Shown here one piece after another: positions 16,064 to 32,229 of a stretch of 64,000 bases of DNA. A program made the position numbers and the translations under genes. The DNA is from an uncultured Chloroflexia bacterium (GTDB taxonomy: Bacteria > Chloroflexota > Limnocylindria > Limnocylindrales > CSP1-4), in assembly GCA_963763775.1 (NCBI GenBank), contig CAVXPZ010000001.1, positions 896,001 to 960,000 of the forward strand, given 5' to 3'. A model generated the notes under the pieces. That model was not told the DNA's origin. It was given only the letters and a program-made list of their open reading frames with translations, and ran no database searches. Within the stretch, counting starts at the first letter, position 1. Each line of letters opens with the position of its first letter.

Positions 16064-18066
16064 TCACCCCTCCGCGAGGATCGTCCGCGAGACGCGTCGC
16101 GCGAGCGCCATGACCGTGACCATCGGGTTGACGCCGATCCCGGTCGGGAAGAGCGAGCCGTCACCGACGTACAGGCCCCGAACGACCCGGTCCGCCGAGC
16201 CGGCACCGCCCGTCCCGACCCGCACACGGCCCCACGGATCGCAGGCGTGGGTCCGCGCGTCCGCGCCCATCCGTACCGACCCCATCTGGTGGGCCGAGAA
16301 CACCGTGCCGCGGTTCGGCGCGAAGTCGAAGGCCTCCAGGGCCGCCTCGAACGCGGCGAACGCCGCCGTCTCGGCGCCCGGTTCGAGGCCCGCGCGTCGG
16401 TGCCAGCGCGGCGGCGTCCCGAGGGCGACGATGTCGTTCGCGCCCGCCGCGCGGACGAGGCGTGCCATCCGGACCAGGCCGTGCCGGAGGGTCGCGACCC
16501 CGGTCGCATCGAGGCGGTAGTCGATGCGCACGCGCCCGGCCTTCGTCAGGGTCAGGCGGCCCTCGCCGCCGTCGCGCGTCACCGCGATCAACGGCGCGAT
16601 GCGGGACGCGCCGGCCATCACCTCGGCATGGGCGGCCCGACCCTCCCACGGGAGGGCCAGCGCCATCAGTCCCGGGTGCCCGGGCGCCGACTCGATCACG
16701 TACCCGTTGCGCCCGGGTGCGCCCGCACCGAACTCCAGGGAGCGGGCCCCCTGCATCGTGCCGCGCCACATCTCGATCGGTTCGCTGAAACGGCCCGCGA
16801 TGACCGACACGGGGTGCAGCCGGAGGTTCCTCCCGGTCGCCGGGTGGTCGATACCGGTCCGCTGGAGGATCGCCGGGGTCCGCAGGGCCCCCGCGGCCAG
16901 CACGACGGTCGCCGCACGCACCTCGAGCGGCCGGCCGTTCGCGACGGTCGCCTCGACGCCGACCGCACGGCCGCCCTCGACGATGACCCGCTGGACGTCC
17001 GCGCCCGCGACGATCCGGGCACCGGCCATCGCCGCCCGAGCCAGGTGGACGCGGATCCCGGACTGCTTCGCCCCACGACGGCAGCCGAAGGGGCAGCTCC
17101 CGCAGTCGCCGCACGCGGTCGCGTTCCGGCGCATCGGGGCGGCCTCCCAGCCGAGTGCGCGGGCGCCGCGCAGGATGACGGCGTCCTTGGGCGGGATGTG
17201 GGTCGCCTCGGCGACGCCGAGGTCGGCCTCGACGGCGGCGACATCGTCGGTCCAGGCGGATCCGTCCTCGACGCCCTCCAGCCCGTGGTCGGATGCCCAG
17301 TCGGCCCGGACGTCGGCCGGGGCCTCGATGCAGGTCATCCAGTTCACGAGCGTGCCGCCGCCGACGCCGCGCCCCGACAGCATCGTCACCGAGCCGTCCC
17401 ACGTGGTCAGCAGCCCGTGGTCGAGGTAGAGCCGGTCGAAGGCGGCGAGCTCGTCGGTCGGCATCGTCGACTCGTCCGACGAACTCCCCGGCCTCGAGGA
17501 CGACGACGGACCGGCCGGCCTCGGCCAGCGCGGCCGCGATGACCCCGCCGCCGGCCCCGGACCCGACGACCACGACGTCCGCGTCGAGCACGATCGGCGA
17601 CGCAGGCGTCGGCGCCATCCCCGCCACCCACGGGCACGAACGGCGTGATGGGCGCCCGGTCGGACGTCACCGGCGGCGAGTCCGGCCGGTAGTCGATGAG
17701 GGCATGGAGCGGGTTCGGGCCGCCGTTGCCGGGATCGGCATACGCCAGGAACGTGAGGAGCTTGCGGAGCGCCTGGAACGCGGAGCGGCGCATCGGCAGG
17801 CGCGAGGTGCCCCAGCCCAGGAGATAGCGTTCGCGGGCGTCGAGCGGCATCGCGCTGAAGCCGGACGCCCGGCCGCACAGGGCAAGGTTCGCGGCCCGGG
17901 ACTCCATCAGCCGGAGCACCAGCGACAACTGCGCCCGCTGTGCGGGATCGGCCGCGACCGCGAGGCCGTCGGCGGCGAGCCGCGCTCGGCGGGCCGGGTC
18001 GTGGGCGACGAAGGTCTCGGCCAGCGCCGTCAGCGTCGCCAGCTCTCGATCGGCGGTCTCGGTCAA
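16064..18066 (-). CDS. GMC oxidoreductase (long-chain alcohol oxidase-like; two frameshifts near 17630 and 17478)
   Basis: DVVVVGSGAGGG, GVGGGTLVNW, CGDCGSCPFGC, GRNLRLHP, SAHQMGSVRMG, DGSLFPTGIGVNP. GGAGG RBS before TTG. Confidence 0.9.
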
Positions 18067-18261
18067 CGGGTCCTCCGGGCTCGGCCGGAGTATGACCGCG
18101 CGGGCGGACGCATCGCTGGGTTACGGGACGGGGTCGCGCGGACCACGTTCGATACGGACCAAGGTCGCGGCGGTGGCGTCCGCGGGTCGCTCGCGGTCCG
18201 CTTCGGCCGCACGCGGCCCCGACCCCTTGTCGGGAGGCTGCCGGGCTGGCTAGCCTCGGGC

Positions 18262-20205
18262 ATGGACGCCGTCGCGCCGGGACGATCAGGTCGGGCGATG
18301 CCCGCCGCGGCCCTCGCGCCGTTGACACCGGCGGCACCCCCGGCACCGACCGCGACCGGCCACGGATCGGCCTCCCCGGTCGCGACCTTCCTCGAGCGGG
18401 TCCACGAGCGGCACCGCGACCGCACCGACGGCACGGTCGCGACGTATATCCCCGCCCTCGCGGCCGCCGACTCGTCGTGGTTCGGCGTCGCGCTGATGAC
18501 GGTCGACGGGACCGGCTACGACGTCGGCGACAGCCGTCAGCCGTTCACGATCCAGTCGATCTCGAAGCCGTTCACCTATGGCCTCGTCCTCGACGCCCTC
18601 GGCGAGCCGGAGGTCCGCCGACGGATCGGCGTCGAACCGACCGGGGACGCCTTCAACTCGATCACGCTTGCGCCCGGGAGCGGGATCCCGCTCAACCCGA
18701 TGGTGAACGCCGGCGCGATCACCGCGGCGGCCATGGTCGCGATGATCCCGGGCGTCGACCCCCTCTCGCACGTCGTCGAGCGCTTCTCGGCCGCCGCGGG
18801 ACGCCGCCTCGGGATCGACGACGCCGTCCATCGGTCGGAACGCGACACGGGGCACCGCAACCGCGCCATCGGCCATCTGTTGCGAGCGTCACGCGCGCTC
18901 GACGATGACCCCGAGGCGGCGCTCGACCGCTACTTCGCCCAGTGCTCGATCACCGTGGACGCGGTCGCGCTCGCCACGATGGCCGCGACCCTCGCGAACG
19001 GCGGCGTGAACCCGGTCAGCGGGGAGCGCGTGCTCGCGGCCGGCACGGTCCGCTCGGTCCTGAGCGTCATGGCGACCTGCGGCATGTACGACGCCGCCGG
19101 GGAGTGGCTCTACACGGTCGGGCTCCCGGCGAAGAGCGGCGTCGCCGGGGGCGTCCTCGCGGTGGTGCCCGGCGAGCTCGGGATCGCGATCTTCTCGCCA
19201 CCGCTCGATGCGCAGGGCAACAGCGTGCGCGGCGTCGAGGTGTGCCGCGACCTCGTGCGCGAGCTCGACCTGCACCTGCTCGGACGCGGGCCGGCGTCGG
19301 TGCCGCCGCTGCGCGCCAGGCACACGGTCGGACGCCTCGGTTCCAAGCGCGGCCGGACGCCGTCGGAGCGGACCGTCATCGCCCGCGGCGCCTGGCAGGC
19401 CGAGGTGCGCCAGCTCCAGGGCGACCTGACGTTCCTCGCCGCCGAACGGGCGATCCGAGGCCTGGAGGACCCGACCGGAGGTCCACGCTGGGTGGCCCTC
19501 GACCTCGGCCGCACGACGGACATCGAGCCCGGCGCGATCGGGCTCCTCGCGGACCTCGTCGTCGCGATGCGGGCGGACGGCCGCGACCTCGCCGTCGCCA
19601 GCGGGTCCGCCCATCTCGAGGCGCTGGACGCGCTGGACGCCCGTCTCGCCGCGACCGGGCAGCCGGTCGTCCGACGGTTCCCCGACGGCGACCGCGCCCG
19701 GGAGTGGGGCGAGGAGTCGATCCTCGACGACGCGGCCGCCTCGAGCCCCGGGCTTCCCGACCACGACCCGCTGTCGGACGACGAGGCGTTGTTCGGCGGG
19801 CTCTCGGCGGCCGAGCGAACGGCGCTCCAGCACCGCTTCGAACGCCGGCTCTACGCCCCGGGCTCGGTCGTCGTCCGGCGCGGCGACGAGGCGACCGAGC
19901 TGTTCCTCGTGGTCTCGGGGCGGCTGAGCGTCACCGTCGACCGGCCGGACGGCATCAGCCGCCGCCTCACGACGCTCTCGGGCGGCATGGTGTTCGGGGA
20001 GCTGGCGTTCGTCGCGCGCGACCGGCGCACCGCGGACGTGCACGCGGACACCATGGTCGAGTGCCTGGTCCTCGAGGCCGGGGCGTTCGAGGCGCTCCTG
20101 GCCGACGAGCCGCACATCGCCGCGGTCATCCTCTCGAACCTGCTGCGGATCGTGGGCGGCACCGCCCGGCGGCTGACCGACGAGCTCGCGGTGGCGGTCG
20201 ACTGA
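18262..20205 (+). CDS. glsA: Glutaminase A with C-terminal STAS-like and cyclic-nucleotide-binding domains
   Basis: VATYIPAL, FTIQSISKPF, EPTGDAFNS, NPMVNAGAI, CGMYDAAGEW, PAKSGVAGG, GNSVRG; LQGDLTF (STAS); FGELAF...RRTADV (cNMP). TAGCCT 5 nt upstream. Confidence 0.93.
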   Translation: MDAVAPGRSGRAMPAAALAPLTPAAPPAPTATGHGSASPVATFLERVHERHRDRTDGTVATYIPALAAADSSWFGVALMTVDGTGYDVGDSRQPFTIQSISKPFTYGLVLDALGEPEVRRRIGVEPTGDAFNSITLAPGSGIPLNPMVNAGAITAAAMVAMIPGVDPLSHVVERFSAAAGRRLGIDDAVHRSERDTGHRNRAIGHLLRASRALDDDPEAALDRYFAQCSITVDAVALATMAATLANGGVNPVSGERVLAAGTVRSVLSVMATCGMYDAAGEWLYTVGLPAKSGVAGGVLAVVPGELGIAIFSPPLDAQGNSVRGVEVCRDLVRELDLHLLGRGPASVPPLRARHTVGRLGSKRGRTPSERTVIARGAWQAEVRQLQGDLTFLAAERAIRGLEDPTGGPRWVALDLGRTTDIEPGAIGLLADLVVAMRADGRDLAVASGSAHLEALDALDARLAATGQPVVRRFPDGDRAREWGEESILDDAAASSPGLPDHDPLSDDEALFGGLSAAERTALQHRFERRLYAPGSVVVRRGDEATELFLVVSGRLSVTVDRPDGISRRLTTLSGGMVFGELAFVARDRRTADVHADTMVECLVLEAGAFEALLADEPHIAAVILSNLLRIVGGTARRLTDELAVAVD

Positions 20206-20223: not shown

Positions 20224-21432
20224 TCAGGCGCCCGGTCGCTCCCAGCCCTGCGCGGGCCACGGCTCGCAGCGCAACGGGCGGTCCTCGCGATAGCCGAGCG
20301 CGTAGTCGGCCTGGATGAGCGTGTGGAGCTGGCTCGTGCCCTCGTAGATGACCGCCGCCTTCGAGTTGCGCAGATAGCGCTCCACCGGGAACTCGTTCGA
20401 GTAGCCGTTCGCGCCGTGGACCTGGATGGCGTCGAGCGCGCTCTGGACCGCGTGCTCGGTCGCGTGCCACTTGGCGAGGCTGGTCTCGCGCGTGTTGCGG
20501 ACGCCCTGGTTCTTCAGCCAGCCGGCGCGCCAGACGAGGAGCCGGCCGATCTCGATGCCCTTCGCCATGTTGGCGATCATCTGCTTCACGAGCTGGTGCT
20601 CGCCGATCTCCTGCCCGAACGTGTGCCGCTCGTGGGCGTATCGGACGGAGGCGTCGAGGCACGCCTGGGCGAGCCCCACGGCGCCGGCGGCGACGGTGTA
20701 CCGGCCCTGGTCGATCGCGCTCATCGCGACGAGGAACCCCTCGCCCTCCTCGCCGATCCGGTTCTCGAGCGGCACCGCGACGTCGTCCAGGTTGATCATC
20801 CCGGTATTGCCGGCGCGGATCCCGAGCTTGCCGTGCAGCGTGCCGGTCGTCAGGCCGGGCATCCCGCGCTCGAGCATGAACGCGGTCACGCCCTTGTGCT
20901 TCTTCGCGCGGTCGACCGAGGCGAAGACGAGGAAGTGGTCGGCGATGTCCGCGAGGCTGATCCACATCTTCTGGCCGTTCAGCCGGTAGGTGTCGCCCTG
21001 CCGGCGGGCCGTGGTCGCGAGGTTCCCGGCATCGGTGCCGACACCGGGCTCCGTGAGCCCGAACGTCGCGAGCTTCTCGCCGCGAGCCTGCGGGACCAGC
21101 CAGCGCTGCCGCTGCGCCTCGGTCCCCCACTGGAGGAGGGCGAGCGAGTTGAGCCCGACGTGGACGCTCTGGACCACGCGGAAGGCGGTGTCGGCCCGCT
21201 CGAGCTCCTCGCACAGGAGCGCGAAGCTGATGTAGTCCATCCCCGCGCCGCCGTAGGCCTCGGGGATCGGGGCGCCGAGGAATCCCAGCTCGCCCATCGC
21301 CGCGAACACCTCGCGGTGGACCTCGCCGGTCTCGTCCCATGCCCGGATGTTCGGCAGGATCTCGGCTTCGGCGAAGGCGCGAACGCTGTCGCGGACCAGC
21401 TTGTGCTCGTCGGTGAGGGCGAAGTCGACCAA
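20224..21432 (-). CDS. Acyl-CoA dehydrogenase
   Basis: TTG start with GGAGG RBS; FGLTEPGVGTD, LNGQKMWIS, QVHGANGYSNEFPVERYLRN, IYEGTSQ. Confidence 0.93.
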   Translation of the reverse strand: MVDFALTDEHKLVRDSVRAFAEAEILPNIRAWDETGEVHREVFAAMGELGFLGAPIPEAYGGAGMDYISFALLCEELERADTAFRVVQSVHVGLNSLALLQWGTEAQRQRWLVPQARGEKLATFGLTEPGVGTDAGNLATTARRQGDTYRLNGQKMWISLADIADHFLVFASVDRAKKHKGVTAFMLERGMPGLTTGTLHGKLGIRAGNTGMINLDDVAVPLENRIGEEGEGFLVAMSAIDQGRYTVAAGAVGLAQACLDASVRYAHERHTFGQEIGEHQLVKQMIANMAKGIEIGRLLVWRAGWLKNQGVRNTRETSLAKWHATEHAVQSALDAIQVHGANGYSNEFPVERYLRNSKAAVIYEGTSQLHTLIQADYALGYREDRPLRCEPWPAQGWERPGA

Positions 21433-21452
21433 GGGGCCTCCTGCTCGGGCGG

Positions 21453-22098
21453 CTAGGCGAGCGATGCTAGCAGGGCGCGATCGACCCGGGCCGGCCCGGG
21501 CGTCCAGACCGTCGCCACGTGCCCCGCGCCGACGTCGAGCGACTGGCAGGACCCCGGTCCTCGGCCGACCGGCCAAGGCGTCCAGCGAGACCCCGCGGCC
21601 CTTCGCCTCGGCCTCGAGTCCCGTCCACGCCGTGGCGAACGCCGATGGCCAGGCAGGCGACGACGGGCCGATCCGACCCGGCAGCCCGGCCGGGCAGAGG
21701 TAGCGGTCGGCGACGGCCGGGTCGGATCGTCGGCGGTCCACCGGCTCCACGTCGACGCCGACATCGATCGCGTCCGCGACGGCCGCGATCGCGACCGTCC
21801 CGGCATGCGAGAGGCTGGCGCGCCAGCGGCCACCATCCGGGGTGAGGATCCACGGGCGCCCGTGGGCATCCGGCTCCACGCCGATCTCCACCGGGCGACA
21901 CCCGACAAGATGGGCGACCATCGATCGAAGCGTGGCGTGCGCGACGACGAAGCGTCGCGCGTCCTCGGGTCGACGGAACGACCTGGCGCGCCGCTGTTCG
22001 GCCGCATCGAGCGTCGACCATCCGGCTCCCATCGGATCCGTCCCACGGTCGACGCGCCCGACGCCGACGACGACCAGCGGGATGGCGGCCGCGCTCAC
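21453..22098 (-). CDS. Sfp-type 4'-phosphopantetheinyl transferase (frameshift near 21550)
   Basis: RRFVVAHATLR, HGRP, SLSHAG, VGVDVE, WTGLEAEAKGRG; GTGA overlap with the A-T-TE gene. Confidence 0.85.
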
Positions 22099-24695
22099 GG
22101 CGGGCCTTCGGCCGCCCGGAGGGTCCGGCTGAGCGAGGCCGCGAAGATCGCCCCGTGGTCGCCCTGGAAGATCGTCTCGTGGTCGACCGGCAGCGGCTCC
22201 CACGTCACATGCTCGGCGAGGCCCTCCCAGAACGTCCGCGGAACGTCGTAATCGCGCGACGTGAACACGACGAAGTCGCCGTCATACGGCATCAGGGCGT
22301 GGCCGCGCCGAGCGCGAGCGAGTTCGTCGAGGTAGCGGTCATGGTCGAGGGGGAGGCCCTCCGGGGGTGGCGTCAAGCGTTGCACGACGAGTCGGCCGAG
22401 GCCGCGGGCCGCGGTCCGAAACCCGCGACGCCGCAGGTGGAAGACGGCTCGTCGCCCGAAGTACGCCGGTCGGCCGGCGTACCAGCGCCAGTCGCGCGGC
22501 CGGTCGACGCGCGGGTCGACGAGCCCGAGCAGGCCGACCGCCTCGCCATCGGAACCGAGACGACGGGCCATCTCGATCGCAACGCGTCCACCCGAGCAGT
22601 AGCCGCCGATGTAGTAGGGGCCTTCCGGCTGGACCGTCCGAACTTCCGCCAGAAAGGCATCGGCGAGCCCGTCGATCGACGGCGGCAGGTTGCCGCCGTC
22701 GACGTTCATCGCGCGCAACCCGTAGAGCGGCTGCTCCGGGTCGAGCGTCCGTCGCAAGGCCGCGGGCCCGATGATCCCGTCGTCGATGTGCACGAAGAAG
22801 AACGGCGGGCGGGCACCCTCGGGCTGGATCGGGAGCAGGGCGGACGTGGGCGCCTGCCACGAGCCGGTGTCGAGGCCGCGCGCATAGCGCTCGATCGTCG
22901 GCGCCCAGAGGAAGGTCGCCAGCGGGAGGTCCTTGGTGCCGAGCCGTTCCCCGATCCGGACGACGATCATCGCGGCGAGCATCGAGTCGCCGCCGACCTC
23001 GAAGAAGTCGTCAAGGACCCCGACGGCGTCGAGGCCGAGCACATCCGACCAGATACTCGCGAGCTCGACCTCTGTCGCGGTGCGCGGCGCGACCCTGGGG
23101 GCCGCGGCTCGGGGCGGTCCCGCAGCACCGGCGCCCGTCGCCGTGCCGTCGTCCTTCGCGAGGCCGAGGCGTGCCGCCAGGCCGATGCGCTGGACCTTGC
23201 CCGTCGGTCCCTTCGGGATCTCGTGCACGATCCGGATCGCCCGCGGGACCTTGAAGTCGGCGAGCCGCTCCGCGAGATCCGCCTGCAGCGCCTGCTCGGT
23301 CAGGGTGGTCCCGTCTCGCGGGACCACGGCCGCGGCGACCTCCTCGCCCAGACGCGCATCCGGCATGGCGAAGACCACCGCTTGCGCCACACCGGGGATC
23401 GCGAGCAGCGCCTCCTCGACCTCGACCGGCGCGACCTTCTCGCCGCCGCGGTTGATGAGCTCCTTGAGCCGGCCGCGCAGGAAGAGATACCCCTCGTCGT
23501 CGAGCGTGCCCTGGTCGCCGGTGCGGAACCACCCGTTCACGAACGCGGTCGCGTTCGCCTCGGGGTTGGCGTCGTAGCCGTCGAAGACCGTCGCGCCGCG
23601 GATGCCCACCTCGCCGAGCGCCCCCGGCTCCAGGACGGCGCCCGTCGGGTCGAGGATCGCGAGATCGATGCCACTCGCCCGGCCGACGGAGCCGGGCTTG
23701 CGAACGCCCGGGGGGATCGGGTTCGTCGCCATCTGGTGGCTGGCCTCGGTCATCCCGTAGGCCTCGACGACGGGCGTCGCGAAGGTCGCCTCGAGCGCCT
23801 CCAGGGTCGCGATCGGCAGCGACGCCGACGACGACCGGATGAACCGGAGCGGCCGACGGTCGATGACCTCGCGATGGGCTGGCGCCCGAGCCAGCACGCC
23901 CTGGTGGATCGTGGGGACGGCCGTGTACCAGGTGGGTCGTTCGTGGTCGAGCCACTCGAAGAACTCGGTGGCGACGAAGCCGGGCGCCGCGACCAGGCTG
24001 CCCCCCGACGCGATCGTCGCGAGCCACGCGGCGACCAGGCCGTGGATGTGGAAGAGCGGCATCACGTTGAGGCAGCGGTCCGCCGGGGTCAGGCCCAGGC
24101 CGTCCGCGACGCTGCTCGCGGAGGCCGCCAGCCGCCCATGGGTGAGCGGCACGAGCTTGGGTCGGGCGGTCGTCCCCGAGGTATGGAGCAGCAGCGCGAC
24201 GTCGTTCGGCGAGGGTGGCGTCGACGGCTGTGCCGGTGCCGCCGGCATCGTGACCGCGGTCATCGGGCGGATGGAGACGGCGCCTGCCGTGCCGCCAGGT
24301 TCGCGGGCCATGGCCAGCACGGGGATGCCGAGACCCGCGGCGACCTCCGGTGCCGCGCTCTCGAGCCCATCCTGGACGATGACCATCGACGCGTGGAGAT
24401 CGTCGAGATAGAACGCGAGCTCGTCGCGACGGTAGGCGGGGTTCAACGGCGCCGCGACGGCCGCGGCGGTGATCCCGAGGAAGGCCACGGCGGCCTCCGG
24501 GCCATTGCCCGTGACGAGGGCCACGCGATCCGTGCGGCCCGCCCCGGCGGCCGCAAGACTCGCCGCCACGTCGCCGACGATATCGGCGAGTCGGGTGAAC
24601 GAGGTGGGCGGCAGGCCGGGCGCCAGGAGGGCGGCTCCGCCCGGATCGCGCTCGGCCGACGCCGCCACGAGGTCCGGGATCGTCGTCATGGGCAT
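22095..24695 (-). CDS. Stand-alone NRPS-like A-T-TE protein; A domain resembles oxalate-CoA ligase (AAE3/Pcs60)
   Basis: HTSGTTARPK, MPLFHIHGL, FIRSSSASL, EAYGMTEASHQM, FRTGDQG, NRGGEK, PKGPTGKVQR; carrier domain FFEVGGDSM; thioesterase PPFFFVH...GGYCSGG...LVDP...DHETI. Confidence 0.92.
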   Translation of the reverse strand: MPMTTIPDLVAASAERDPGGAALLAPGLPPTSFTRLADIVGDVAASLAAAGAGRTDRVALVTGNGPEAAVAFLGITAAAVAAPLNPAYRRDELAFYLDDLHASMVIVQDGLESAAPEVAAGLGIPVLAMAREPGGTAGAVSIRPMTAVTMPAAPAQPSTPPSPNDVALLLHTSGTTARPKLVPLTHGRLAASASSVADGLGLTPADRCLNVMPLFHIHGLVAAWLATIASGGSLVAAPGFVATEFFEWLDHERPTWYTAVPTIHQGVLARAPAHREVIDRRPLRFIRSSSASLPIATLEALEATFATPVVEAYGMTEASHQMATNPIPPGVRKPGSVGRASGIDLAILDPTGAVLEPGALGEVGIRGATVFDGYDANPEANATAFVNGWFRTGDQGTLDDEGYLFLRGRLKELINRGGEKVAPVEVEEALLAIPGVAQAVVFAMPDARLGEEVAAAVVPRDGTTLTEQALQADLAERLADFKVPRAIRIVHEIPKGPTGKVQRIGLAARLGLAKDDGTATGAGAAGPPRAAAPRVAPRTATEVELASIWSDVLGLDAVGVLDDFFEVGGDSMLAAMIVVRIGERLGTKDLPLATFLWAPTIERYARGLDTGSWQAPTSALLPIQPEGARPPFFFVHIDDGIIGPAALRRTLDPEQPLYGLRAMNVDGGNLPPSIDGLADAFLAEVRTVQPEGPYYIGGYCSGGRVAIEMARRLGSDGEAVGLLGLVDPRVDRPRDWRWYAGRPAYFGRRAVFHLRRRGFRTAARGLGRLVVQRLTPPPEGLPLDHDRYLDELARARRGHALMPYDGDFVVFTSRDYDVPRTFWEGLAEHVTWEPLPVDHETIFQGDHGAIFAASLSRTLRAAEGPP

Positions 24696-24768
24696 GCCCC
24701 GAGGATAGGCGGCCGGGCTCGAACCGTATACTCGGTCCCCCGCCCAGCCATCTCGGAGTCACGCACCG

Positions 24769-26053
24769 ATGTCGACCCCCGGCACCGCATCGTCCTCGAA
24801 CCTGACGCCCGTCCTGGGGCGCTACTACCAACGCGACTGGAGCCACGGGTCCGGACATCGCCTGTATGACACGGACGGGCGCGCGTACCTCGACTTCGCC
24901 AACGGGATCGCCGTCTCGGCGCTGGGGCACGTCCACCCGAAGGTGACGGCCGCGATCCATGCACAGGTCGACCGGCTCATCGGCCCGATCAACGCCCTGG
25001 GCTTCGCGGAGCCGGTCTCGCGCCTCGCGACCGAGCTCGCGGCGACGTTCCCGGAGCCACTGGATTCCGTGATGTTCCTCAACTCCGGGTCCGAGGCCAT
25101 CGACGGGGCGCTCAAGCTGGCGCGGCGGGTGACCGGCCGGCCCGGGATCATCGCGTTCCGTGGCGGGTTCCACGGCCGGACCTTCGGGGCCACGAGCGTC
25201 ACCACGTCGAACCTGAACTACCGGACCGGCTACGAGCCGCTGCTCCCTGGCGTCTACTTCGCCCCGTTCCCGAACGCGTACGACGACTTCGCGGGCGACG
25301 ACGCCCAGGCCAGCGAGACGTGCCTCTCGATCCTTCGATCGCTGCTGGAGACGATCATCGCGCCGTCGAAGGTGGCGGCGATCCTCATCGAGCCCATCCA
25401 GGGCGAGGGCGGCTTCATCCCGGCGCCGGCGGCCTTCCTCCAGGGCCTGCGAGCGCTCTGCGACGAGCACGGGATCCTGCTGATCGCCGACGAGATCCAG
25501 TCGGGCTACGGGCGGACCGGGCGGATGTGGGCCTTCGAGCACGCCGCGATCGTCCCGGACATCGTGACGGTGGCCAAGGCCATCGCGAACGGCCTGCCGT
25601 TGTCGGCCATCGTGTCGTCACGCGAGCTCCAGGAGCGATGGGGCCGAGGCGCGCACGGCTCCACGTATGGCGGCAACCCGGTCGCCTGTGCCGCCGGCCT
25701 CGCCGTCCTCGAGACCATCCAGGGCGAAGGGCTCATCGCGAACGCCGCGATCCGCGGCGCCGAGCTGAGCGCGGGACTCGCCGCGATCGCGGCCGAGGAC
25801 GAGCGGATCGGCGACATCCGCGGACCAGGTCTGATGGTCGGCGTGGAATTCGTCCGCGACCGGGCGACCCGGGAGCGCGATGGCGACCTGCCGGACCGTC
25901 TGATGGCCGCCTGCGCCGATGCCGGCCTGCTCGTGCTCACGTGCGGGTCCCAGCACGAGACGATCCGCTGGATCCCGCCGCTCGATGTCAGCGCGGCCGA
26001 AGATCGCCGAGGCGGTCGAGATCTTCGGGGACACCCTCTCGCGGTTGCGCTAA
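24769..26053 (+). CDS. Class III PLP aminotransferase (4-aminobutyrate/acetylornithine aminotransferase-like; frameshift near 25998)
   Basis: NSGSEA, FHGRT, EPIQGEGG, DEIQSGYGRTG, VAKAIANG, HGSTYGGNP; shifted frame ends at TAA 26053. Confidence 0.92.
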
Positions 26054-26569: not shown

Positions 26570-27778
26570 TCAGCCGCCGTCGCCTCTCCCTACCGGGTAC
26601 GCATCCGTGGTATCCGGCGCGTCCGCGACGATCGTGATCTCGATCGTCGGGAGCCGCTCCAGGATCCGGTCGGCCAGCGACGAGCGCCGCATCCGGTCCA
26701 GCGCGCTCGACGTCCGATGCGGCATGACCAGCCGCGTGACGCGTCGGCTGCGGGCCACCATGACGATCCCGTCGGCGACATCGGCCGACTCGACCGTGAC
26801 GATCTCGGCCCCGAGGTCCGTCGCGTCGTCGCGAAACTCGCGCAACCGCCGGGTCCGCTCGGATGGCGCGCCGGCGTCGGCCGGCGTCTCCACGAGGACC
26901 GCGAGGAGGGGCGCCCGAAGGATGGCCGCGGTCGCGGCGGCCCGGCGAAGCGCCCGCGGTGTCGCGGGCGACGAGTCCACGAGGACCAGGACACGCTCGC
27001 TGACCGTCTGGAGCAGCCGCTCGCTGCCGATGTCCTCGAGCTGGGCGTCGACCCGGCCCGCAACGAACCGCAGGGCCAGCTCCCGCAGGGCCGTCAGATT
27101 GCCTTCGGTGAAGAACCGGTCGAGGGCGATCCTGGCCCGGTCCTCGGGATACACGTTCCCGTGGCGCATCCGCTGGCGAAGGGCGAACGGGCTCATGTCG
27201 ACGAGCTCGACCTCGTCCGCTGCCGCGAGCACCTCGTCCGGGATGCGCTCGTTGACCGGCGCGCCGGTGATCGTCGCCACCGCGTCGGCGACCGACTCGA
27301 GATGCTGGATGTTGCAGGTGCTCACGACGTCGATCCCGGCGTCGAGGAGCACGCCGACATCCTCCCAGCGCTTGTCGCGCGCCGAGCCAGGCGCGTTCGT
27401 GTGGGCGAGCTCGTCCACCAGGGCCACGGTCGGACGTCGCACGATCACGGCGTCGGTGTCCATCTCCTCGACGACGACGCCGCGGTACTCCACGCGGCGG
27501 CGCGGGACGATCTCGAGTCCGTCCAGCAGTCTCGCGGTCTCGGGCCGACCGTGGGACTCCACGAAGCCGACGACCAGGTCCGTCCCGCGCGCCGTCCTCC
27601 GGTGGCCCTCCTCGAGCATCCGGTACGTCTTGCCGACGCCGGGGGCCATCCCGAGGTAGACGCGCAGTCGACCGCGACCGTCGGCCTGTCGTTCCGCGCC
27701 CCTCGTTCGGGCGAGCATCTCGTCGGCGGTCGGACGTCGGTCGCCGTCGGACCGGTCCGAGCGGTCGCGCTCGGTCAT
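26570..27778 (-). CDS. kdpD: KdpD N-terminal cytoplasmic sensor (KdpD + Usp domains, no kinase)
   Basis: GRLRVYLGMAPGVGKTYRML, LVDELAHTN, NIQHLES, GNLTALRELAL; C-terminal Usp-like domain. Confidence 0.92.
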   Translation of the reverse strand: MTERDRSDRSDGDRRPTADEMLARTRGAERQADGRGRLRVYLGMAPGVGKTYRMLEEGHRRTARGTDLVVGFVESHGRPETARLLDGLEIVPRRRVEYRGVVVEEMDTDAVIVRRPTVALVDELAHTNAPGSARDKRWEDVGVLLDAGIDVVSTCNIQHLESVADAVATITGAPVNERIPDEVLAAADEVELVDMSPFALRQRMRHGNVYPEDRARIALDRFFTEGNLTALRELALRFVAGRVDAQLEDIGSERLLQTVSERVLVLVDSSPATPRALRRAAATAAILRAPLLAVLVETPADAGAPSERTRRLREFRDDATDLGAEIVTVESADVADGIVMVARSRRVTRLVMPHRTSSALDRMRRSSLADRILERLPTIEITIVADAPDTTDAYPVGRGDGG

Positions 27779-28356
27779 CGCAGGAGCCCGTCCAGGTCGA
27801 GATTCAGCTCCAGGACGTTGACCCGGGGCTGCCCCAGGAACCCCAGGAGCGGCTGGGTCGTGTGTCGCGCCACGGCGGCGCGAACGTCGTCCTCGCTGAT
27901 CCCTCGCGTCTTCGCGACGCGGGCCACCTGGTACTCGGCGCCGGCCGGGCTGATGTCCGCGTCGAGCCCGGAGGCGGACGTCGTCACGAGGTCGACCGGG
28001 ATCGGGGCGTCGCCGTTCGCGGCCCGGAAGTCGTCGATGGACGTCTGGATCCGGTCGATCAGGTCCTGGTTGGTCGGACCGAGGTTCGAGCCGGCTGACG
28101 CGTTCGCGTCGTAGCCGTCGCTCCCGGCCGCGGACAGGCGCCCGGAGAAGTACTTCGGGTCGTCGAAGGCCTGACCGATCAGGGTGGACCCGATCGCCGT
28201 TCCGTCGACCACGATCAACGAGCCGTTGGCCTGGTGCGGGAACGCGACCTGGGCCAGCCCCGTGATGACGACGGGGTAGACGATCCCGACGAGGAGGGTG
28301 ATGAGCAGCAGCAGGGCCGCGGCCGGGTAGAGCTGGTGGCGGAGGAAGGTGGTCAT
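27775..28356 (-). CDS. kdpC: K+-transporting ATPase subunit C
   Basis: FPHQANGS, GSNLGPTN, DLVTTSASGLD, RVNVLELNLDLD. Confidence 0.96.
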   Translation of the reverse strand: MTTFLRHQLYPAAALLLLITLLVGIVYPVVITGLAQVAFPHQANGSLIVVDGTAIGSTLIGQAFDDPKYFSGRLSAAGSDGYDANASAGSNLGPTNQDLIDRIQTSIDDFRAANGDAPIPVDLVTTSASGLDADISPAGAEYQVARVAKTRGISEDDVRAAVARHTTQPLLGFLGQPRVNVLELNLDLDGLLR

Positions 28357-28368
28357 TCGTCGGTCGTC

Positions 28369-30516
28369 CTAGGCGATGTTCAAGGCGGTGAGGAGCATGT
28401 CGATCAGCTTGATCCCCACGAACGGAGCGAGGATGCCGCCGAGCCCGTAGATCAGCAGGTTGCGCTGGAGCAGCGCGCTCGCGGGCGCGGCCCGGAAGGC
28501 GACGCCGCGAAGGGCCAATGGGATGAGTGCCACGATGATCAGGGCGTTGAAGATCACGGCGGCCAGGATCGCGCTCTGGGGTGTCGAGAGCCCCATGACG
28601 TTGAGCGCGTTCAGCTCCGGGTAGACCGTGACGAAGATCGCCGGGATGATCGCGAAGTACTTCGCGAGATCGTTCGCGATCGAGAACGTGGTGATCGCCC
28701 CGCGCGTGATCAGGAGCTGCTTCCCGATCGCGATGACCTCGATGAGCTTGGTGGGGTCCGAGTCGAGGTCGACCATGTTGGCCGCTTCCTTCGAGGCCGA
28801 GGTGCCGCTGTTCATCGCGAGCCCCACGTCGGCCTGCGCGAGCGCCGGCGCGTCGTTCGTGCCGTCACCGGTCATCGCGACGAGGTGCCCGTCCGCCTGC
28901 TCGCGGCGGATGATGGCGATCTTGTCCTCGGGCTTGGCCTCGGCCACGAAGTCGTCGACGCCGGCCTCGGCGGCGATCGTCTTCGCGGTCAGCGGGTTGT
29001 CGCCGGTGATCATGATCGTGCGGATGCCCATCCGGCGGAGCTCCGCGAAACGCTCCGCGAGCCCCGGCTTCACGGTGTCCTTGAGCTCGATGACGCCGAG
29101 CGCTCGACCGTGGCGGCTGATCGCGAGCGGTGTCGCCCCGAGACCGGCGACCTCGTCGCTGACGGCGCCCAGCTCGGGCGGGGGCGCGACCGTCAGGCCG
29201 GCGACGATCGCGTCGACCGCGCCCTTGAGGATCGTGCTGCCGTCGTCGAGCCGGACGCCGCTGGCGCGCGCCTCCGCGGTGAACGGGATCGACTCGACGA
29301 TGGCGTTCTTGAGCGCCGCGTCGTCGACGGAGCCGCCGAGCTCGGCGAGCCGCGCATGGGCGAGGGTCACGATCGACCGGCCCTCGGGGGTCTCGTCGTC
29401 CAGCGAGGCCTGCAAGGCGGCCGTCACGACCTCGGCCTCGTCCGCGCCGGGCATCGGGACGATGCGCGACGCGAGCCGATTGCCGAACGTGATCGTGCCG
29501 GTCTTGTCGAGGAGGATCACGTCGACGTCGCCCGATGCCTCGACGGCCCGCCCGCTCATGGCCAGGACGTTGAAGCGCGCGACGCGGTCCATCCCGGCGA
29601 TCCCGATCGCCGAGAGCAGCCCGCCGATCGTGGTCGGGATGAGGCAGACGAGGAGGGCGATGAGAGCGACCGTGTCCACGGTGGCGCCGGCGTACAGCCC
29701 GAACGGCCGCAACGTCACCGTGGCCATCAGGAAGACGATCGTGAGGCCCGACAACAGGATGGCCAGGGCGATCTCGTTGGGCGTCCGCTGACGCTTCGCG
29801 CCCTCGACGAGGGCGATCATCCGGTCGAGGAAGGTCTCGCCCGGATCGGCGGTGATCCGGATGACCAGCGAGTCACTCGTGAGCTGGGTGCCGCCCGTCA
29901 CCGAGCTGCGGATATCCGTGCCCGGCTCCTTGAGGACGGGGGCGGATTCGCCGGTGATCGCGGACTCGTTGACGTAGGCGACGCCCTCGATGACGTCCCC
30001 GTCGCCGGGGATCGTCTCGGGCTCGCGCACGACGACGATGTCGCCCTTGCGCAGCTCCGAGGAGCCGATGTCCTCGATCGTGCCGTCGGCGCGCGGCGGT
30101 GGGCTGTCGTCTCGGACCGAGTCCGACGAAGCGTCGCGGCCTGCGCCCGGCCGCGCGCCTCGGCGACGGCCTCGGCATACGTGGCGAACAGGACCGTGAA
30201 CCACAGCCACGCGGCGATCTGGACCTGGAAGCCGAGGCCATCGGGCCCGCGTCACCGGCTGGAGACCGGTCACGTTCGCGATCGCGATGATCGTCACCAG
30301 CGCGGCCGTGAGCTCGACGACGAACATGACCGGGTTCCGGATGAGCTGCCGCGGATCGAGCTTGCGGATCGACTGGGGCAGGGCGGCCCGGAGCAGGTCC
30401 GGATCGAAGACGCCACGCGGCTTCGGCGGTTCGCCACTGGGTTTCGCGCCCCCGAGGGAGATGGATCGCTGGAAGCGGCGTGTGCCGCGTCCGAGGTCGA
30501 CGGAGAAGAGCGTCAT
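28369..30516 (-). CDS. kdpB: K+-transporting P-type ATPase subunit B (compensating frameshifts near 30245 and 30095)
   Basis: [47 protein letters not shown]. Confidence 0.95.
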
Positions 30517-30518
30517 GG

Positions 30519-32229
30519 TCAGGAGGGCCCTCCGGCGTTCTGCATGAGCTGCTCCACGATCGGACCCAGCGCGAGGGCCGGGAAGAACGTCAACGCGCCG
30601 ACGATGAGGATCACGCCGATGAGGAGCACGACGAAGAGCGGGCCGGTCGTCGGGAATGTCCCGAGCGATGGGGCGACGCGTCGCTTGGCCGCCATGGATC
30701 CCGCGAGGGCCAGGACCGGGATGATCATCCCGTAGCGGCCGAGCAGCATCGCGAAAGCGCCCGTGAGGTTGTAGAAGGGGGTGTTGCCGGTCAGGCCGGC
30801 AAACGCGGATCCGTTGTTGCCGGTCTGGCTGCTGAACGCGTACAGGATCTCGCTGAACCCATGCGGGCCGGGGTTGAGCGGACCGGCCAGGCCCTCGGGG
30901 GTCACCGAGGCGAGCGCGGTGAAGCCGAGGATGCTCGCCCCGAGGACCAGGACGACGAGCATCGTCATCTTCATCTCGAAGGCTTCGACCTTCTTGCCGA
31001 GGTACTCCGGGGTCCGCCCGACCATCAGGCCAGCGATGAACACGGCCAGGATGGCGCCGATCACGAGCATGCCGTACAGCCCGGCGCCGATGCCGCCCGG
31101 CGTGATCTCGCCCAGTTCGATGTTGAACAGGGGAACGAGCCCGCCGATCGGCTGGAAGCTGTCGTGCCAGGCGTTGATCGCGCCCGTGCTCGTGCTCGTC
31201 GTGATCGCCGCGAACAGGGCGCCGACGCCGGCACCGAACTTGAGCTCCTTCCCCTCCATGTTGCCGAGGGACTGGTCGAGGCCCGTCGGGTAGAGCGGGT
31301 TCGGGGTGGTCTCCGCGTGGATCGCGACGACCGCGCCGACCAGGAAGACGAGGGCCATCGCGCCGAAGATGACCCAGCCCTGACGCTGGTCCTTCGCGTA
31401 CCGGCCGAACGTGAACGTCAGGGAGAAGGGCACCGCGAACATCAGGATCATCTCGAAGAGGTTCGTCAGTGGGGTCGGGTTTTCGAACGGGTGAGACGAG
31501 TTGGCGTTGAGGAAGCCGCCACCGTTGTTGCCGAGTTCCTTGATGACTTCCTGGGTCGCGATCGGGCCTCGGGCGATGATCTGCTCGATGCCCTGCAGGG
31601 TCGTGACGTTGGCGGGTCCTTCGAAGGTCTGCGGGACGCCCTGCCAGACGAAGATCAGGGCCACCACGACCGAGATCGGCAGGAGGATGTAGAGGATGCC
31701 GCGCGTCAGGTCGACCCAGTAGTTGCCGATCGTCGACGAGGTGCGGCGCGTGAGGCCGCGGACGAGGGCGATCGCGACGGCCAGACCGGTCGCCGCGGAT
31801 GTGAAGTTGCGGACCGCGAGCATCGCCATCTGGGTGAGATAGCTGGCGCCCGTCTCGCCGCTGTAGTTCTGCCAGTTGGTGTTCGTCTCGAAGCTGATCG
31901 AGGTGTTGAAGGCCAGGTCGGGCGATTGCGCGGCGGCCGCCCCGGGGTTCAGCGGGAGGACGTCCTGCAGCCGCAGCATCACGTAGCCGACGACGATCGC
32001 GATGACGGCCATGAGGACGACCGACACCGCGTAGCCCTTCCAGCCCTGCTCGACCGTCTCGTCGATCCGAGCGACGCGGTAGATCCCTCGCTCGAGCGGG
32101 CGGAGGACCGGACTGAGGATCGTGCGCTCGCCCTCCATGACGCGAGCGATGTAGCCCCCGAGGAACGGCGTGATCAGGATGACCGCGCCGAAGAAGACGA
32201 CGAGGGTCAGGAAGATCGGAGATGGGCAC
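30519..32229 (-). CDS. kdpA: K+-transporting ATPase subunit A (frameshift in the first codons)
   Basis: TNTNWQNYSGE, LGNNGGGF..ANSSHPFENP, GRTPEYLGKK, NNGSAFAGL, FFPALALGPIVE. Confidence 0.95.

Follow-up and report, generated by a model that had tools for sequence, protein, structure and literature searches.

Two kinds of enzyme, each known separately, resemble parts of the protein described here: the oxalyl-CoA synthetases, and the enzymes resembling non-ribosomal peptide synthetases (NRPS-like enzymes) in which an adenylation (A), a carrier (T) and a thioesterase (TE) domain are joined in one polypeptide. For the oxalyl-CoA synthetase AtAAE3, the accessible part of the published description gives an oxalate pocket of Val215-His216, Cys288-Ser289, Ala313-Met314, His319 and Lys500, and the same source, as far as it is available, reports that the Lathyrus sativus enzyme (LsOCS) prefers oxalate by orders of magnitude in vitro (PMC8905533). 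TE domains with a cysteine nucleophile have been structurally characterised in AB3403, SulM and ObiF1, according to the portion of the literature available on them (PMC11298585). The present analysis concerns a stretch of 64,000 nucleotides from an uncultured Chloroflexia bacterium (contig CAVXPZ010000001.1, positions 896,001 to 960,000; hereafter the window, from genome G000), in which a gene for an A-T-TE protein, with an A domain of the oxalyl-CoA-synthetase type and a cysteine TE domain, is followed by a gene for a probable Sfp-type phosphopantetheinyl transferase (PPTase). No description of an oxalate-type A-T-TE enzyme with a cysteine TE was found in the literature searched, supplementary files lying outside the search.

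The two genes form a cassette (window 21453-24695) that is inserted in the spacer, roughly 40 nt long, between two divergent core genes. We propose, with a probability of roughly 0.6, that this cassette is self-contained, comprising an A-T-TE enzyme and the PPTase that primes it, and that its A domain adenylates oxalate and loads it on the carrier, from which the TE domain transfers it to an acceptor encoded outside the cassette. In such a scheme the PPTase would convert the carrier to its holo form at Ser571, after which the A domain would adenylate oxalate and thioesterify it to the enzyme's own pantetheine arm rather than to CoA. The oxalyl group would then move to Cys700 of the TE domain, which would pass it to a nucleophile not encoded by the cassette, giving an oxalylated product; the most plausible acceptor would be an amino or hydroxyl group on a metabolite of the host or on a sugar of its envelope.

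The G+C content of the window is 72%, and genes were therefore called by the G+C content of third codon positions. The A-T-TE reading frame was translated into 866 residues with zero stops, had a third-position G+C of 0.90 and contained every catalytic motif. Pfam assigned AMP-binding (E 1.2e-67), AMP-binding_C, PP-binding and Thioesterase domains to the product and no condensation domain was found in its 866 residues, while the order A, T, TE in one polypeptide is that of the NRPS-like A-T-TE enzymes. A TATCCT box lies 8 nt ahead of the A-T-TE ATG, within the spacer to the divergent gene. An earlier reading of the window, made from the letters alone (the original prediction), had described an 866-residue A-T-TE protein lacking a condensation domain, an overlapping PPTase gene, an acyl-CoA dehydrogenase (ACAD) gene after it and a class III aminotransferase gene diverging at a distance of 73 bp. 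This description agreed with our gene calls and Pfam assignments throughout, with the GTG start of the PPTase gene overlapping the TGA stop of the A-T-TE gene as GTGA and the ACAD carrying all three Acyl-CoA_dh domains, and the motifs then listed (MPLFHIHGL, RSSSAS, EAYGMTEASHQM and KGPTGK) were all located in the A-T-TE translation.

Searches of the PDB with the A domain returned AtAAE3 (5IE0) as the best match, with 393 bits (E 2.6e-116) and an end-to-end alignment over residues 4-506, followed by LsOCS with 384 bits and yeast Pcs60 with 342 bits. The first four ranks were all occupied by oxalate-CoA ligase entries, belonging to three enzymes (393, 384, 342 and 256 bits), and after these came FadD13 (226 bits) and malonyl-CoA synthetase (219 bits). 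On these matches the A domain belongs with the oxalyl-CoA synthetases, in the AAE3/Pcs60/OCS branch of the ANL enzymes. The resemblance to oxalyl-CoA synthetases noted in the original prediction was thus upheld, both by the distance to FadD13 and by the retention of three oxalate contacts, and the grouping with generic fatty-acyl ligases that had been named beforehand as refuting it was not seen. The A domains of LgrA, SrfA-C and AB3403 reached only 126-150 bits, far below the acyl-CoA ligases, and an NRPS-type adenylation domain was ruled out on that ground.

The pocket of AtAAE3 was aligned to I217-H218, S289-S290, G314-M315, H320 and K500 of the A-T-TE protein. The residues that contact oxalate in AtAAE3, given as Ser289, His319 and Lys500 in the accessible part of its description, correspond to S290, H320 and K500 and were invariant in 25/25 A-T-TE homologues; the remaining mapped positions were likewise invariant across the 25, except for I217 and S289 (24/25 each). 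Taken together, the pocket residues H216, I217, H218, S289, S290, G314, M315, H320 and K500 give the signature HIHSSGMHK, which was present in 61 of 82 A domains. Since 41 of the 52 stand-alone ligase homologues were among the carriers of this signature, fusion to a carrier domain has not reshaped the pocket. A FastTree phylogeny of A domains (94 rows, local support only, with three paralogous ligases from the genus as the root and excluding AAE3 and Pcs60) united the 52 stand-alone ligases in one group (support 91) with the carrier-fused forms outside it, and placed the window protein in a clade (support 99) of 11 A-T-TE proteins from Actinomycetota and metagenome sources. By function, the A domain would best be classed as an oxalate-activating domain rather than as an oxalate-CoA ligase.

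Ser571, the predicted pantetheine attachment site, was invariant in 25/25 homologues. By sequence, the T-TE half matched the TE domains of AB3403 (E 1.3e-24) and EntF, and an AlphaFold model of this half (pLDDT 82.9, with values below 50 in the lid region at model residues 226-254) was matched by Foldseek to the peptidyl carrier protein-thioesterase (PCP-TE) structure of EntF, 3TEJ (E 4e-20), and then to AB3403, 4ZXH (2e-19). As modelled, the TE domain has the NRPS-type PCP-TE alpha/beta-hydrolase fold. Its triad is formed by C700, D727 and H839, the nucleophile being Cys and not Ser, and in the 25 closer homologues the Cys was retained in 23, the Asp in 22 and the His in 23. Within a wider set of 18 A-T-TE proteins, 16 had the Cys and two had Ser in its place.

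The product of the second gene was matched to B. subtilis Sfp (E 7e-4), and the motifs GRP, SHAG, GVDVE and W..EA..K are in place. Its Pfam scores were 26.5 and 20.7 bits against cut-offs of 27 and 25, with the HetI and ACPS matches below their cut-offs and the C-terminal part out of frame, and its NCBIfam score also fell just below the cut-off. The gene is 646 nt long and thus carries a 1-nt frame break: the frame of the start codon reads into the ACAD gene without a stop, while the C-terminus (LDVGAGHVATVW...ASLA) and the stop codon TAG (21455-21453) lie one base out of frame. The frame breaks inside a G-run, and the same stretch stands in a single frame in the related genome G017.

The two genes that flank the cassette belong to the core of the genus, with ACAD matches of 84-92% identity in 34 of 41 genomes. 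Gene order was compared in 28 fetched loci of the genus, excluding G000 and G017. In 26 of them the aminotransferase gene lay directly upstream of the ACAD gene, divergent from it, across a spacer of about 200 bp or less; of the two exceptions, one locus ends at a contig edge and in the other (L103) the genes are separated by a 1.2-kb insert of unrelated sequence. Matches to the A, T or TE domain or to the PPTase were absent from all 28 loci. Because the ACAD and aminotransferase genes adjoin without them in 26 of 28 loci, the A-T-TE and PPTase genes constitute an inserted cassette of 3.2 kb. Two elements mark the ancestral spacer, CGAGTATAC on the aminotransferase side and, immediately before the ACAD gene, a box of the CTGCTAGCATCG or TACGAT type. 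The cassette of the window sits between the CGAGTATAC element and the CTGCTAGCATCG box, and the ACAD gene keeps the box, its AGGAGG and its TTG start. From its sequence this box appears to be promoter-like and ancestral, and the retained region around it is, by comparison with the relatives, the right-hand edge of the insertion.

The cassette was also present in G017, at the same position and in a decayed state. There, the protein matches to the A-T-TE enzyme changed frame at least five times and ran through one in-frame stop, and the PPTase match was restricted to residues 112-183. Between G017 and G000 the DNA of the A-T-TE gene was 79.6% identical with 73 gap openings and that of the PPTase gene 71.3% identical with 34, as against 88% and no gap openings for the ACAD gene and 81% and three for the aminotransferase gene.

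These comparisons bear on the original prediction, which had described all four genes under one small cluster while reserving judgement on whether the dehydrogenase and aminotransferase belong to the pathway. On a four-gene reading the aminotransferase would make an amine to which the TE domain transfers its load, and the dehydrogenase would tailor the product. It is true that the four genes are adjacent and that the ACAD gene lies downstream of the A-T-TE and PPTase genes on the same strand. However, the flanking pair adjoins without the cassette across the genus, the ACAD gene has a promoter-like box and a ribosome-binding site of its own, and in G017 the flanks have stayed intact while the cassette decayed. 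Moreover, no homologue of the ACAD, the aminotransferase or the neighbouring glutaminase was found in 19 A-T-TE loci from other organisms (tblastn E <= 1e-5), where, a few glycan genes aside, only a PPTase recurred (three loci). Of the two refuting outcomes named beforehand, a lack of conserved neighbours was thus observed for all but the PPTase. Synteny thus largely refutes a four-gene pathway, which we regard as very improbable. What stands of the proposed cluster is the oxalyl-type A domain fused to a carrier and TE and accompanied by its own PPTase; the ACAD and aminotransferase are not members, and no support was found for transfer to an aminotransferase product.

Two side observations concern the same spacer. 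In L103 (genome G021) the different 1.2-kb insert occupies positions 288-1503 and holds an open reading frame (ORF) with a lipoprotein-like signal, MRRSVILFMTVVVLTAC..., and the spacer may be a recurrent insertion site. The CGAGTATAC (or CGAGTGTATC) element beside the aminotransferase start, at 24720-24740 of the window, recurs genus-wide in the same spacer (L088-L115) and may be an operator or part of a promoter.

When the A-T-TE protein was used as a query (P0001), whole-length matches were obtained only in G000 and G017 among the 41 relatives, and a full-length A-T-TE was present in one of 301 sampled genomes of the class (G000), with G066 matching the A domain alone. Further afield, 119 of the 120 best database matches combined AMP-binding, PP-binding and Thioesterase domains, at identities of 44-71%, two of the 120 having a condensation domain in addition, and the A-T-TE family was common in soil and sediment metagenomes. 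The G000 genome, which is 87% complete, has two PPTase matches (an AcpS-like one and that of the cassette) and two carrier domains (an ACP-like one and that of the cassette), so that its one secondary carrier domain and the one PPTase match of Sfp type to serve it both come from the cassette. Neither a condensation domain nor an oxalate-forming lyase of the PEP-mutase/ICL family was found in this genome at that completeness, and no carrier-dependent enzyme other than that of the cassette was seen in it.

The surroundings of related genes were compared in 80 genome loci, in which the A domain was part of an A-T-TE protein in 10, joined to a carrier and something else in 18 and alone in 52, and in 80 metagenome loci among the matches listed, with 9 (plus L129), 27 and 44, respectively; these listed metagenome matches do not include the proteins of 64-71% identity found among the best database matches. 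For the 19 foreign A-T-TE loci, 67 neighbours were tallied after L124, a near-copy of L123, had been dropped. No Pfam family had more than four members, the commonest being Glycos_transf_2 with four, and the families with two members each included ACPS, polysaccharide deacetylase and group-1 (GT4-type) glycosyltransferases. Apart from a few glycan genes, only a PPTase recurred near these loci, directly downstream of the A-T-TE gene in L007 and L008 and within 3 kb of it in L016. The PPTases of L007 and L008 were detected only via de novo clustering and Pfam, as the window PPTase, used as a tblastn query, recovered no PPTase from the foreign A-T-TE loci at E <= 1e-5. An all-against-all clustering of ORFs from 10 A-T-TE loci gave only the A-T-TE gene itself, shadow ORFs and the PPTase of the L007/L008 type. 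As a separate observation, L118 (4362-8901) and L121 (5996-10571) each hold a polysaccharide deacetylase, a group-1 (GT4-type) glycosyltransferase and an A-T-TE gene in an operon-like row with overlapping starts and stops, the first two lying immediately ahead of the A-T-TE gene in L118; an amino sugar that has lost its acetyl group could suitably be re-acylated by such a set.

Among the recurring partners of the A-T didomain relatives are NRPS modules. Oxc-like thiamine pyrophosphate (TPP) enzymes are encoded directly downstream of A-T genes in the NRPS loci L027 (11854-13494), L053 (11855-13600), L138 (9968-11587) and L162 (4258-5454); for the two that were scanned, L027 and L053, the best-scoring NCBIfam model was that of oxalyl-CoA decarboxylase. 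Such a partner hints that an oxalyl group on the carrier may be decarboxylated or enter a carboligation. Lyases of the PEP-mutase/ICL family, which possibly form oxalate, stand beside A-T genes in L022 (4882-9344), L133 (5706-6536), L154 (2358-3158) and L159 (274-1038); in L022 the A-T unit is fused to a hexapeptide acyltransferase and one copy of the lyase lies on each side. The Oxc-like enzymes and the lyases are weak, independent hints at oxalate. PglD-like hexapeptide acyltransferases accompany A-T genes in L020, L021, L044, L139 and L142, besides the fused one in L022, and the presence of these transferases suggests that an acyl group on the carrier is destined for transfer. One further A-T gene of the oxalate type, in L018 (4179-8693), is followed by a gene for an 869-aa protein with a lantibiotic-dehydratase N-terminal domain.

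Several observations weigh against the proposed role of the cassette in oxalyl transfer, and the first of them concern the substrate. Oxalate is, as predicted from sequence, the probable substrate of the A domain. The pocket differs from that of AtAAE3 at three residues (V215I, C288S and A313G), so that a slightly different small acid could be the substrate. The best NCBIfam model was 'FadD7 family fatty acid-CoA ligase', with 444 bits against a cut-off of 650, a name that is not known to rest on an assay. In addition, the Oxc-like enzymes of L027 and L053 scored 326-342 bits against a cut-off of 557, with acetolactate synthase models nearly equal. It could therefore be argued, from three changes among eight pocket residues, one of which (A313G) enlarges the pocket, and from the fatty-acid name of the top model, that the A domain loads another small acid (glyoxylate, glycolate, oxamate, malonate or pyruvate) or a fatty acid. 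We consider this rather unlikely, since Ser and His, which set the specificity, are invariant along with the catalytic Lys, the same pocket recurs in most of the stand-alone ligase homologues, fatty-acyl ligases score 170 bits lower and oxalate is indicated by the Oxc-like and ICL/PEP-mutase-family enzymes encoded beside carrier-fused relatives.

A second group of such observations concerns the TE domain. In the wider set of 18 proteins the aligned His and the aligned Asp were each found in 10, in a poorly aligned region, and the triad is thus not constant across the whole family. The cassette contains no acceptor or tailoring gene, and a stand-alone TE could hydrolyse its load. Were the TE domain only to hydrolyse the thioester, or to acylate free CoA, the enzyme would be an oxalate-activating or proofreading device and not a biosynthetic transferase, an explanation favoured by hydrolysis being the default reaction of type I TE domains and by the lack of an acceptor-supplying gene in the cassette. 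Hydrolysis of an oxalyl-S-carrier would, however, amount to a futile ATP cycle, and the same family offers a simpler route in its direct oxalyl-CoA ligases. The A-T units of relatives are, furthermore, coupled to condensation domains, PglD-like acyltransferases, GNAT and arylamine N-acetyltransferase. We therefore think it quite improbable that the TE domain acts in this way, and prefer transfer of the oxalyl group to an acceptor from the host.

Finally, the frame break in the PPTase gene may be either an assembly error or real decay, and in the latter case the carrier may be unprimed and the cassette on its way to the state seen in G017. The cassette would then be a non-working relic in this organism, its PPTase frameshifted and fused to the ACAD in the start frame and its carrier left in the apo form, which would agree with the clear decay of the orthologous cassette in G017 and with no other Sfp-type PPTase having been seen in the 87% complete genome. 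Against decay, the A-T-TE frame has been kept intact over 866 codons with its third-position G+C and all catalytic motifs, and the PPTase break falls in a homopolymer. The aminotransferase gene, a conserved core gene 4.5 kb away, has a similar single-base shift, which suggests an assembly error in the PPTase gene as well, and we hold a relic to be unlikely. By comparison with four relatives, one extra base at about 26001-26003 puts the conserved C-terminus of the aminotransferase (IAEAVEIFG...) and its stop codon (26051-26053) into another frame; this may be an assembly indel or a real truncation, and both breaks may be indel errors of a metagenome-assembled genome of four contigs. A screen of the window for same-strand frame breaks gave three candidates only, one of them this locus. 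Among public reads, one DNA run (X1) matched with 6% of sampled words, its contigs covering the region in scattered pieces (22092-22323 among them) and neither frame-break site, and no RNA run matching the region was listed.

The positions of the features are collected in Table 1. Outside the cassette and its flanks, window 17293-20205 on the plus strand encodes a 970-aa protein with a glutaminase core (380-662), a C-terminal cyclic-nucleotide-binding domain and some 360 N-terminal residues without a Pfam match, and 27775-32138 on the minus strand holds a kdp potassium-pump operon, with KdpC and KdpA recognised by Pfam and KdpB presumed to lie between them.

Table 1. Features of the A-T-TE/PPTase cassette and its flanks, in window coordinates.
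Feature	Position	Strand	Evidence and remarks
A-T-TE gene, intact	22095..24695	-	Stop-free translation, Pfam, full-length homologues at 44-71% identity; further in-frame ATG at 24689
Adenylation domain, oxalyl-CoA-synthetase type by sequence, residues 1 to ~515	23151..24695	-	Top PDB matches 5IE0, 6QJZ, 8AFF
Carrier (T) domain with GGDS; predicted pantetheine attachment site Ser571	22878..23063	-	Pfam PP-binding, residues 545-606
Thioesterase domain; Cys700 (GYCSGG), Asp727, His839	22098..22838	-	Pfam Thioesterase, AB3403/EntF TE matches, T-TE model
Probable Sfp-type PPTase gene, 646 nt, GTG start, 1-nt frame break	21453..22098	-	Junction, alternative frame, comparison with G017, Sfp match
G-run with PPTase frame break	21543..21558	-	Frame analysis and comparison with G017
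Start-to-start spacer of A-T-TE and aminotransferase genes, 73 bp, with genus-conserved CGAGTATAC element	24696..24768	.	Spacer comparison
Retained ancestral ACAD upstream region: CTGCTAGCATCG box (TAGCAT 21469-21464), AGGAGG (21442-21437)	21433..21475	-	Relatives without cassette (e.g. L089, L091) and G017
Acyl-CoA dehydrogenase (ACAD) gene, TTG start, three Acyl-CoA_dh domains	20224..21432	-	Pfam; flanking core gene
Class III aminotransferase gene, ATG 24769, one extra base at ~26001-26003	24769..26053	+	Pfam Aminotran_3 (E 9e-118); flanking core gene

A wider proposal goes beyond the cassette itself, and we put it forward tentatively and with more doubt than conviction. Oxalate might be an unrecognised building block of thiotemplate chemistry, loaded on carriers by a widespread AAE3-like family, and the A-T-TE enzyme with its cysteine TE might act as an autonomous 'oxalyl transferase' on amines or hydroxyls of host metabolites or of amino-sugars in the envelope, its gene travelling between soil and freshwater bacteria together with that of the PPTase as a portable pair. 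If oxalate is indeed loaded on the carrier, thiotemplate enzymes would gain a two-carbon dicarboxylate unit, and oxalylated metabolites or surface glycans could exist as a class that has not yet been looked for. The locus lends itself to experiment, as it consists of two genes, has a precise insertion site and, in the decayed orthologue, comes with a natural control. Its history of insertion can be read clearly, and the flanking genes can be set aside. The case also illustrates that calling clusters from adjacency can go wrong: of the four genes in the proposed 'cluster', two are the flanks of an insertion.

Compared with known systems, the A domain shares the ANL fold, the Ser, His and Lys contacts, the His-x-His and the Met with the oxalyl-CoA synthetases (EC 6.2.1.8) AtAAE3 (5IE0-5IE3), Lathyrus sativus OCS (6QJZ) and Pcs60 (8AFF). 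These are, however, free-standing enzymes of about 515 aa that use CoA, whereas the domain in the window is joined to a carrier and a TE, and where AtAAE3 has Val215, Cys288 and Ala313 the window pocket has Ile, Ser and Gly. For the T-TE half, the PCP-TE regions of EntF (3TEJ, 2ROQ) and A. baumannii AB3403 (4ZXH) were the best matches in sequence and fold, and AB3403 likewise has a Cys nucleophile, seen as GGWCFGG in the alignment, with the Asp at the usual position (PMC11298585). In EntF and AB3403 the TE domain ends a multi-domain synthetase with condensation and amino-acid A domains, whereas the window enzyme has no condensation domain and is predicted to load a two-carbon acid.

The fungal and bacterial NRPS-like A-T-TE enzymes, quinone and furanone synthetases such as those for polyporic acid and atromentin, have the same domain order and no condensation domain, as far as the available portions of their descriptions go. 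These synthetases use an NRPS-type A domain and aromatic alpha-keto acids, and their TE couples two units via a C-C bond. In contrast, the A domain of the window is of the acyl-CoA-ligase type (NRPS A domains about 150 bits, AAE3 393), and oxalate is without an alpha-carbon for a C-C condensation. The didomain starters of other genomes, in which an oxalate-type A domain is joined to a carrier, belong to the same A-domain clade as the window enzyme and have the same pocket. They are about 600 aa long and are found with NRPS modules or with Oxc-like, PEP-mutase/ICL-family or PglD-like partners, whereas the window enzyme has none of these partners and carries a TE domain of its own.

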